From NCBI GenBank assembly GCA_000004695.1, contig CM000155.2:192001-256000 (forward strand): a stretch of DNA of 64,000 bases, in the 5' to 3' direction. Shown in pieces: positions 47,658 to 50,499 of the stretch. Both the position numbers and the translations under genes were made by a program. The notes below the pieces were generated by a model. That model saw nothing but the letters and a program-made list of their open reading frames with translations, was not told the origin of the DNA and ran no database searches. The stretch comes from Dictyostelium discoideum (taxonomy: Eukaryota). How positions within the stretch are numbered: position 1 is the stretch's first letter; the number at the start of each line of letters is the position of its first letter.

Positions 47658-50499
47658 ATGTTTGGTGGTCAATTTGGTTCATTCGGTGCAAAACCAGCTG
47701 CAACTGCATCACCATTCGGTGCTCCATCCGCTGCACCAACAACTTCATTGTTTGGTTCAACAGCTCCATCATCAGGTAAGTTTTTTTTTTTAAAATAAAA
47801 AATCATAAAACAAATATATAAATTAAATATTAATACAAAGTTTCAATTTCAAATAATATTATTTTAGGATTTGGAGGATTTGGATCAACAGCACAGACAA
47901 CACAACCAACAACAGGTGGATTTGGAGGATTTGGTGGATTTGGAGGAGCAACAACTACACAGCAACCAGCAGCAAGTCCATTTGGTGGTGGAGGAACAGG
48001 TGGTAGTGGATTATTTGGATCATCAGCACAAACAACAACACAGCAACCAGGTGCAAGTCCATTTGGTGGTGGATTTGGTACAACTACTACAACAACTACA
48101 CAGCAACCAGGCGCAAGTCCATTTGGCGGAACAGGTGGTGGATTATTTGGATCATCAGCACAAACAACAACACAACAACAAGGTGCAAGTCCATTTGGTG
48201 GATTTGGAGGAGCAACTACAACACAACCATCATTATTATCAGGTGCCACTGGTGGTTTTGGTGGTTTTGGTGGTTCTACAACTTCAGGTACTCAATTAGG
48301 TGGTGGTGGTGGTGCAACAAGTGGTGCATTTGGTGGTTCATCAAGTCCATTTGGTGGTAGTGGTGGTGCAACCACATCAAGTCCATTTGGTGGTGGTGGT
48401 GGTAGTTTCGGAGCAACCACTCAAAAACAATATGGAACACCAATTCCATATCAACAAACTACAATTGAAGGTAATACATTCGTTTCAATCTCTGCTATGC
48501 CACAATATAACGATAGATCATTTGAGGAATTAAGATTTGAAGATATCACTCATAGAAAGGATATAGTTTATAAGACAGGTGGTGGCAGTGGTGGTGGTAA
48601 CTCATTGTTTGGTTCAACTCCAACCACTCAACCTTCATCACCATTTGGTGCACAAACAACAACTCAAACCACTGGAGGTTTATTCGGTGGTCAAACTACT
48701 ACCTCACCATTTGGTGGTCAAACTTCAGCCACTCCAGGTTCATCATTATTTGGTTCAACACAACCAACTCAACAACAAACTAGTGGTGGTTTATTTGGTT
48801 CAGTACAACCAACCCAACAACAAGCTGGTGGTGGTTTATTCGGTTCAATGCCAAGCACAGGTGGTTCATCATTATTTGGTTCAACACAACCAACTCAACA
48901 ACAAACTGGTGGTGGTTTGTTTGGTGCAACCCAATCAAATCAACCAACCAATTCATTGTTTGGTGCATCAGCACGCATCAGCACAACCAACACAATCATT
49001 ATTTGGTGGACAAACTCAAACAACCACTTCACCATTTGGTAGTCAAACCTCCACACCATTTGGTCAACCTCAACAAACTAATACTGGAAGTGGATTATTC
49101 GGTGCTCAACAAACTCAACAAACTAATACTGGAGGTGGATTATTCGGTGCCCAACCAACTCAACAAACTAGTGGTGGTGGATTATTCGGTACTCAACCAA
49201 CCTCTGGAACTGGGTTGTTTGGTACGTCACCAACAGCAGGAGGTACAGGTTTATTTGGCACAACACAACCAACATCCCAAGGTACAGGTTTATTTGGTAC
49301 AACACAACCAACAACTCAAGGTACCGGTTTATTTGGTACATCACCAACCTCTGGTACAGGTTTATTTGGTTCAACACCAACCTCTGGTACAGGTTTATTT
49401 GGCTCAACCCCAACATCTGGTACAGGTTTATTTGGTTCAGCTCAACCACCACAAAATCAACAATCTCAAACTTCACTCTTTGGTAATACAGGTACAGGTG
49501 CAACCAACACTGGCACTGGTCTATTTGGTTCAGCTCAACCATCATCAAACCCAGGTGGTGGTTTATTTGGTTCAGCACAACCATCAACTACTACAGGTGG
49601 TCTTTTCGGATCAAACCAACCAACAGCACAACCAACAACTTCATTATTTGGAAATACCACTGGTTCAGTTGGTGGTTTGGGTGCAACACCAAACATAACC
49701 AGTGGATTATTTGGTTCAAACCCAGCACAAACTGGTGGATTATTTGGTTCAACACAACCAACCACCCAAACTTCACTCTTTGGAAATACAGGATCAACTG
49801 GTGGTTTAGGTGCACAAAATGGTGGTGGATTATTTGGTAATCTTTCACAACCAACCGCAACTGCTGGTCAAGGATTATCAGGTGGATTATTTGGTAATCT
49901 TTCACAACCTACTGCAACCGCTGGTCAAGGTTTATCAAGTGGTGGATTGTTTGGTAATACATTATTAGGTCAACCAAGTACACAGGGTTTATCAAGTGCC
50001 CTTCCAACATTGGGTTTAGGTTTAATGGGAGGTCAACCACAACAAACTCAACAACTTCCACAAGGCTCATTGATGTTACAACAAACTCAACAACCACTTC
50101 AACAACAACCACTCCAACAACAACAACAACCACTCCAACAATCAACCATCCAATTAAATAATCAAATCAATTCCGCTTCACCTTATTTCCCAATTTCATC
50201 ACCAGCACCATTTGCAACATTTGTTAAGGATTTAACATCAACTTCAAAAGTTGTTTCACCACCATCTTACACTCAAAGATCCTTATCACATCATGGTTAT
50301 ATTCCAAAATCAACCACTAAATTAGTACCAAGAAGAGGCCCAAACAATGTAGATCTAGGTTTTTCAGTTATACAAAATCAAAATGGTTTATTCCCAATTG
50401 ATAAATTTATTACTAAACATTCAAAATCTTTAAATATTAATACTACAAATGAAACTGAAGATACTTTAAGATCATTAAATACAAAGAGTTCTTCATTAT

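Follow-up and report, generated by a model that had tools for sequence, protein, structure and literature searches.

Precursors of the Nup98-Nup96 type, represented by metazoan NUP98-NUP96 and by Nup145 and Nup189 in fungi, combine a GLFG/FG (phenylalanine-glycine) repeat domain with an embedded GLEBS segment and an S59 domain that cleaves at HF/S (here and below, a slash in a sequence marks a cleavage site or a splice junction), followed by Nup96/Nup145C. NUP98-NUP96 autoproteolytic precursors were reportedly described by Fontoura et al. in 1999. The same order of domains, with a GLEBS-like segment among the FG repeats, is present in the gene analyzed here, located on the forward strand of a 64,000-nt stretch of Dictyostelium discoideum DNA (positions 192,001 to 256,000 of contig CM000155.2, assembly GCA_000004695.1; hereafter the window, in whose coordinates all positions are given). 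This locus is the single, functional Nup98-Nup96 precursor gene of D. discoideum AX4 chromosome 6, corresponding to UniProt entry Q54EQ8, a protein called Nup98-Nup96 in the supplement of a study on the nuclear pore complex (NPC; 10.1101/2024.01.17.575985). No biologically significant difference from the metazoan and fungal precursors was found, the only anomaly being a frameshift in the deposited DNA.

Repeat and frame switch in exon 2

Three-frame translation of the FG-repeat exon (exon 2) showed that the repeat frame, with codon starts equal to 2 modulo 3, is open from the exon acceptor at 47868 to the residues ...NSLFGASA at 48973. Beyond this position the same frame gives nonsense (RISTTNTIIIWW...) and then reaches a TAG at 49040..49042, the premature stop that on translation of the DNA as written ends a truncated product of 430 aa. 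The coding of FG repeats picks up again as SAQPTQSLFGGQTQ... (SAQPTQSLFGG...), now with codon starts equal to 0 modulo 3, and remains open to 51515. At the point of the switch lies a perfect tandem repeat of the 10-mer GCATCAGCAC, with a first copy at 48965..48974 and a second at 48975..48984, both read directly on the forward strand; they are 100% identical, head to tail, and no further copy exists on either strand of the window. As deposited, the tandem reads AATTCATTGTTTGGTGCATCAGCACGCATCAGCACAACCAAC (20 nt), and TTGTTTGGTGCATCAGCACGCATCAGCACAACCAAC in its wider context. The second copy adds 10 nt (alternatively, the extra base is the C at 48974), which shifts the frame by +1. An earlier note on this DNA had already described the perfect repeat, the passage from frame 2 (47868 to 48974) to coding in frame 0, and two overlapping open reading frames (ORFs) at 48497-49042 and 48579-51515, all of which our analysis reproduced.

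The position of the switch can be narrowed down by conserved sequence on both sides: an LFG that ends at 48964 and a QPT that starts at 48984 limit it to 48965-48983, that is, to the repeat itself. When exon 2 was shuffled 500 times with its dinucleotides preserved, 9 of the shuffled sequences contained a perfect tandem of two 10-mers, and the other sizeable tandem repeats of this exon have periods divisible by three, with the sole exception of an imperfect low-complexity 8-mer. These facts indicate that repeat and frameshift are causally linked rather than coincident, and confirm the 10-bp tandem repeat as the frame-breaking lesion of the deposited Nup98-Nup96 DNA. A single uninterrupted coding sequence (CDS) from the FG domain into Nup96 is absent from the sequence as deposited, which breaks at 48975 and stops at 49040, and the frame is restored by taking out 10 nt, 1 nt, or the 67-nt segment 48915-48981 discussed below. 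Deletion of 48975-48984 gives one CDS of 2,072 codons (222 kDa), made up of a Nup98 of 1,183 aa and a Nup96 of 889 aa, as expected from the proposal in the earlier note that dropping one copy would yield a seamless FG repeat.

Apart from this lesion the gene structure is regular. Exon 1 (47658..47775; ATG at 47658, MFGGQFGSFG...SSG, ending in phase 1) is collinear with the orthologues of Dictyostelium citrinum and Dictyostelium dimigraforme, and its N-terminus is identical to that of the published protein DdNup220. Intron 1 (47776..47867, 92 nt, GTAAGT...TTTTAG, 10% GC) lies at CDS position 118, as it does in both orthologues. The part of exon 2 upstream of the lesion (47868..48974) encodes FG/GLFG repeats (Nucleoporin_FG, 56 bits) and a GLEBS-like segment at 48422-48574, and the part downstream (48985..51491) encodes further FG repeats, a Q/N-rich linker, the S59 domain (Pfam match at 50892-51320; Nucleoporin2, 153 bits) and the start of Nup96. 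The two subunits meet at the autoproteolytic site His-Phe/Ser (HF/SKY, 51303..51311), where chain M0 of PDB entry 9hcj begins (SKYSAP...). Intron 2 (51492..51922, 431 nt, GTAAGT...TTTTAG, 10% GC) is also shared by the orthologues, and the junction it leaves, ...ETSSG/DENQDE..., is identical in 9hcj_M0. Exon 3 (51923..54409, stop included) encodes the body of Nup96 (Pfam match at 52946-53800). Its ORF was found on five independent Logan genomic contigs (runs SRR26869257, SRR26869258, SRR26869267, SRR28564542 and SRR28564543), all identical to the window and all ending in the T-run of intron 2.

The name Nup98-Nup96 given in the earlier note holds on the basis of these domains. PF13634 (Nucleoporin_FG) matches on both sides of the lesion with 56-78 bits (cut-off 32), PF04096 (peptidase S59) with 153 bits, its HFSKY cleavage site lying exactly where the 9hcj chains are split, and PF12110 (Nup96) with 272 bits, in frame with exon 2 through the splicing of intron 2. 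The match of the GLEBS-like segment to PF21240 (Nup98_GLEBS) is 26.0 bits, just below the gathering score of 27; the segment is nearly identical in D. citrinum and D. dimigraforme and carries the GLEBS label in the supplement of PMC4283134. The assignment to AX4 is given by the flanking ORFs, which exactly match the AX4 proteins EAL61669.1/Q54ES0 and EAL61596.1/Q54ER7 (cct7).

The 67-nt intron of the public gene model

The public gene model, as represented by Q54EQ8, PDB 9hcj and DdNup220, recovers the frame by splicing out a GT..AG segment of 67 nt on the forward strand (48915..48981, with GT at 48915-16 and AG at 48980-81), composed of 57 nt of FG coding (GLFGATQSNQPTNSLFGAS) plus 10 frame-shifting bases. 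The statement in the earlier note that no GT..AG was available is thus wrong in effect, since these dinucleotides bracket the extra bases and the public model splices there. The splice junction implied by this intron is TCAACAACAAACTGGTGGTG joined to CACAACCAACACAATCATTA. In a comparison with a 264-aa query, chain U0 of 9hcj (1,164 aa, i.e., 1,183 - 19) was identical to the translation of the window except for a clean gap of 19 residues, located at ...QQQTGG/AQPTQS..., where GLFGATQSNQPTNSLFGAS is left out; chain M0 (889 aa) matches the Nup96 of the window, the exon 2/3 junction included. Without 48915-48981 the model has 2,053 aa (1,164 + 889) and a mass of 220.5 kDa. FG dipeptides number 56 in its first 719 residues, and LFGNTLLG occupies residues 711-718. 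The FG domain of DdNup220 was published as 719 residues with 56 FG, printed in lines of 71 residues (Schmidt and Gorlich, 2015, Supplementary file 2, PMC4283134). It fits only the model with the 67-nt intron, as revealed by a jump of 90 residues in window numbering on the line of the junction; removal of 10 nt would give an FG domain of 738 residues and 58 FG. The three public sequences therefore derive from the same locus and share the three real exon blocks and the HF/SKY site, being identical to the window elsewhere where compared, and they differ in lacking GLFGATQSNQPTNSLFGAS, so that a protein of 2,053 aa (56 FG) stands against a corrected one of 2,072 aa (58 FG) or 2,075 aa.

Several characteristics set this segment apart from the real introns of the gene. 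Its GC content is 43%, versus 10% in both of them, and it starts and ends with GTTTGT...ATCAG instead of GTAAGT...TTTTAG, and its acceptor is not preceded by a T-rich tract. In the orthologues of D. citrinum and D. dimigraforme, each of the six introns begins with GTAAGT, and none is located at the position of the 67-nt segment. When read in the upstream FG frame, the segment encodes two FG repeats with 17 of 19 residues identical to D. citrinum; the homologous segment is in-frame FG coding with no annotated intron in both relatives, and the acceptor AG is replaced by CTG in D. citrinum. Given the difference in GC content, the GTTTGT start and the fact that the encoded FG repeats are coding sequence in the two sister species, the intron at 48915-48981 is almost certainly artificial.

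A reading in which the duplication is real and the annotation right, the segment being a genuine atypical intron or a cryptic one used after the duplication, and Nup98 being 19 residues shorter, has some points in its favor. The GT and AG do exist and their use leaves a clean 2,053-aa ORF, 67 nt falls within the range of short Dictyostelium introns, and the intron is assumed by the public model and by the structural work built on it. We nevertheless consider it very unlikely in view of the composition and borders of the segment, its conserved coding content and its non-conserved acceptor; besides, gene predictors routinely bridge frameshifts by means of such introns.

Origin of the extra bases

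The orthologues of D. citrinum (2,031 aa) and D. dimigraforme (2,028 aa) are syntenic with the window gene, with which they share the order of domains and the positions of introns 1 and 2, and they are collinear with it across the lesion (NSLFGAPSSSGQPTNSLFGG and GGLFGSTSGSTQPTTSLF, respectively). Both of them read through exon 2 in one open frame, and 18 nt in them correspond to 19 nt in the window. The flanking genes, a low-complexity gene upstream and a three-exon gene for a Ser-rich secreted protein downstream, are conserved as well. Ratios of nonsynonymous to synonymous substitution rates (dN/dS) downstream of the lesion, calculated against both relatives, were 0.27 for the FG repeats, 0.08-0.10 for the linker and autopeptidase domain and 0.13 for Nup96, which reveals strong purifying selection on 1,650 codons, and the 6.2 kb of the gene contain one lesion. 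A pseudogene was rejected on these grounds: a single lesion, dN/dS of 0.08-0.27 downstream of it, and synteny with intact orthologues. Among the three possibilities considered in the earlier note, namely an error, a disruptive allele of the strain or a pseudogenized copy, the last one can consequently be discarded, and a sequencing or assembly error remains the leading explanation.

We estimate at roughly 0.78 the probability that the extra bases stem from a fault in the reference, whether a sequencing, an assembly-join or a clone-borne artefact, rather than from the living strain itself. D. discoideum has a haploid genome, and Nup96 serves as a core scaffold component of the Y-complex. The product as written is a 430-aa fragment without the autopeptidase domain and without Nup96, and the first in-frame ATG downstream of the lesion is at 50025, about 1 kb away. 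Reading the junction as written introduces a CGC arginine codon that is not used in any of the 48 arginine codons of the gene, and nothing stands out in the RNA fold of 48950-49070 (z = -1.48; 14 of 200 shuffles fold as well). At the same time, Nup96 is present in the NPC model of D. discoideum (PDB 9hcj_M0). It is the combination of these facts that makes a reference error the best explanation. The sequence of events could have been as follows: an artefact of one of these types would have placed extra sequence at 48965-48984 and shifted the FG exon by +1, the true sequence having either one copy of the 10-mer or a 9-bp tandem of GCATCAGCA (two copies) without a spurious C at 48974; automated gene prediction would then have restored the frame by inventing the 67-nt GT..AG intron at 48915-48981, and the public protein would thereby have lost 19 genuine residues including two FG motifs, or 22 if the repair is by one base.

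Some observations weigh against a reference error. Perfect 10-bp tandem duplications typically arise by real replication slippage and are unusual as errors of Sanger base calling, among which single-base errors are far commoner. The equal 18-nt spacer of both sister species, considered below, would point to one extra base rather than ten. The exact reconstructed proteins (2,053, 2,072 and 2,075 aa) were not found in a collection of 15 billion proteins, so that newer assemblies of D. discoideum speak neither for nor against any of the repairs. Finally, the analysis recovered no independent sequence of D. discoideum that covers 48965-48984, be it a read, a contig or a cDNA, and the artefact, with the absence of the extra bases from real AX4 DNA, is thus something that we infer.

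The search for independent sequence across the site was done in several ways. From the 31-mer repeat structure a Logan contig spanning 48878 to ~50525 was predicted, and exact look-up found none of the ten cut products expected from it (each of three alleles with three C-termini, and one version lacking one G); the 978-aa ORF of the downstream frame, three tails of the upstream frame ending at the TAG at 49042, and an antisense ORF were not on record in the contig look-up either. A scan of metagenome DNA with an allele-tolerant pattern gave 0 matches. Homology searches with Nup98-Nup96 returned the orthologues of the sister species only, and those with the junction region were dominated by generic FG proteins and missed the D. 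citrinum orthologue itself, which makes the lack of D. discoideum matches uninformative. The representative-library search folds all Dictyostelium copies into the D. dimigraforme protein, and Q54EQ8 is public, yet no D. discoideum copy was returned by the homology searches, so negative results there do not amount to absence. Nothing was found in the literature for Q54EQ8 or for lists of reference errors naming the Nup98-Nup96 gene.

The FG exon also contains exact direct repeats of 45 nt (48737-48781 = 48863-48907) and 37 nt (48006-48042 = 48138-48174). These exceed k = 31 and probably fragment the short-read de Bruijn contigs of the gene, and this fragmentation may be the reason why no Logan contig was found to extend across the lesion.

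If the reference is in error, two repairs can be considered. Removal of one 10-mer gives ...SLFGASAQPTQSLFGG... and the protein GASAQPTQS, the site then reading AATTCATTGTTTGGTGCATCAGCACAACCAAC, or TTGTTTGGTGCATCAGCACAACCAAC in the wider context. Dropping the C at 48974 leaves an in-frame 9-bp tandem (two copies of GCATCAGCA, encoding ASAASA) in ...SLFGASAASAQPTQSLFGG..., with the site reading ...GCATCAGCAGCATCAGCACAACC... and, more widely, TTGTTTGGTGCATCAGCAGCATCAGCACAACCAAC. The resulting proteins have 2,072 and 2,075 aa, respectively. The 10-nt removal proposed in the earlier note is therefore effective in restoring the frame, without being the only plausible repair, as the one-base removal also works and reproduces the spacer length of the relatives. 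Between the GGT of the FG and CAA CCA, both sister species have 18 nt (GCA CCA TCA TCA TCT GGA in D. citrinum and TCA ACA TCT GGA TCA ACA in D. dimigraforme) versus 19 in the window, which would favor the one-base version. The equal spacer was set aside as a decider between the two repairs: the relatives align to each other with an offset of one codon in the spacer, so indels are frequent there. For a random 1-nt error to create a perfect repeat of two 10-mers, in turn, a perfect 9-bp tandem with the same base (C) after it must have existed beforehand, while the perfect repeat follows directly from a duplication or an uncollapsed join. On balance we favor removal of 10 nt, which seems about twice as likely as removal of one.

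The explanations in which the extra bases belong to a real allele (a spliced allele, recoding, or a tolerated disruptive allele) are improbable even when taken together. Along with the genuine intron dealt with above, the duplication could be real, recent and disruptive in the AX4 stock, giving a strain-specific null or nascent pseudogene, with Nup96 and the C-terminal part of Nup98 made otherwise, through internal initiation at the ATG at 50025 or from a second copy. Spontaneous mutation commonly produces short tandem duplications in the repeat-rich genome of D. discoideum, and the perfection of the repeat is what would be expected of a very young event. In a haploid organism, however, a product truncated in this way would contain neither the autopeptidase domain nor any of Nup96, and reinitiation is implausible because the ribosome would first have translated 430 codons and the ATG lies about 1 kb downstream. 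Neither a second lesion nor relaxed constraint was detected, and the syntenic orthologues of this locus in the relatives are intact. In addition, it is the only Nup98-96 named in the AX4 proteome by the NPC study (10.1101/2024.01.17.575985), a genome-wide search for a second copy not having been made. We regard such an allele as highly improbable.

It is likewise very improbable that the 20-nt sequence is real in living AX4 and that a functional Nup98-96 is obtained either through the GC-rich, non-consensus 67-nt intron or by translational recoding. The least credible of these possibilities, which we consider exceedingly unlikely, is that the duplication is retained in the mRNA and the ribosome recodes it into full-length Nup98-96, either shifting by +1 or bypassing a short stretch somewhere from 48975 to the TAG at 49040: its sole support is a resemblance, the zero-frame CGC codon used nowhere else in the gene (a hungry codon being a classic stimulator of +1 frameshifting), against which stand the lack of a recognizable slippery sequence or take-off/landing pair at 48970-48985, where GCA cannot re-pair on CAC, the unremarkable RNA fold, the lack of any evolutionary history of recoding given that the relatives have no frameshift, and the dependence of an essential, abundant scaffold protein on an inefficient event.

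Other features of the region and significance of the frameshift

Intron 2 of Nup98-Nup96, with its 431 nt, is unusually long for Dictyostelium; otherwise 90% A+T, it holds a (TAA)n tract and a small C/G-rich island (TTTCCCCCCGCGCAG), especially at 51610-51625 and 51666-51730. Both orthologues differ from the window gene in carrying a third intron in Nup96 (80 nt in D. citrinum, 90 nt in D. dimigraforme; GTAAGT...ATAG, phase 2, between the codons ...YKN/LNDW..., at CDS positions 4877 and 4871, respectively). The counterpart in the window is 53177-53212, with the site near 53190, and exon 3 is continuous there, in agreement with PDB 9hcj_M0. This difference indicates that the third intron was either precisely lost in D. 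discoideum or gained in the other lineage.

Upstream of the gene, on the forward strand, positions 43528-46287 contain an ORF of 919 aa in which (PHSPHM)n-like repeats and tracts of poly-N and poly-Q make up nearly the whole sequence; an orthologue of this ORF is annotated upstream of Nup98-96 in D. citrinum. No exact match to it was present in the protein collection, and HMMER gave no match at E <= 1e-30, the query being pure low complexity. Downstream, on the reverse strand (54726-56655), a three-exon gene encodes a Ser-rich secreted protein, probably anchored by glycosylphosphatidylinositol, of 576 aa according to our model and orthologous to a 562-aa neighbor in D. citrinum. Its intron 2 starts with a non-consensus GTGGAG in both D. 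discoideum and D. citrinum, and the 576-aa model was not in the protein collection by exact look-up.

The value of this finding lies mainly in curation. Q54EQ8, the reference protein and only Nup98-Nup96 of a major model organism, is probably short by 19-22 residues including two FG motifs, and the residue numbering downstream of the gap would be offset accordingly. The shortened sequence has already entered other work: it served as the FG domain of DdNup220 in experiments on phase separation (PMC4283134) and as the SEQRES of PDB 9hcj, the D. discoideum nuclear-pore model. The biological conclusions drawn there are unlikely to be affected. This example further illustrates that gene predictors can mask frameshifts in reference sequences by implausible GC-rich "introns", a signature that could be screened for genome-wide in AT-rich genomes. 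With respect to the biology of D. discoideum the interest is low, the repeat being a real feature of the deposited reference and most probably not one of the organism. It would be biologically notable only if the duplication were real in AX4; should the 20-nt sequence prove to be so and functional Nup98-96 still be made, this gene would offer a recent frameshift in an essential haploid gene that is rescued at the level of RNA or of the ribosome.

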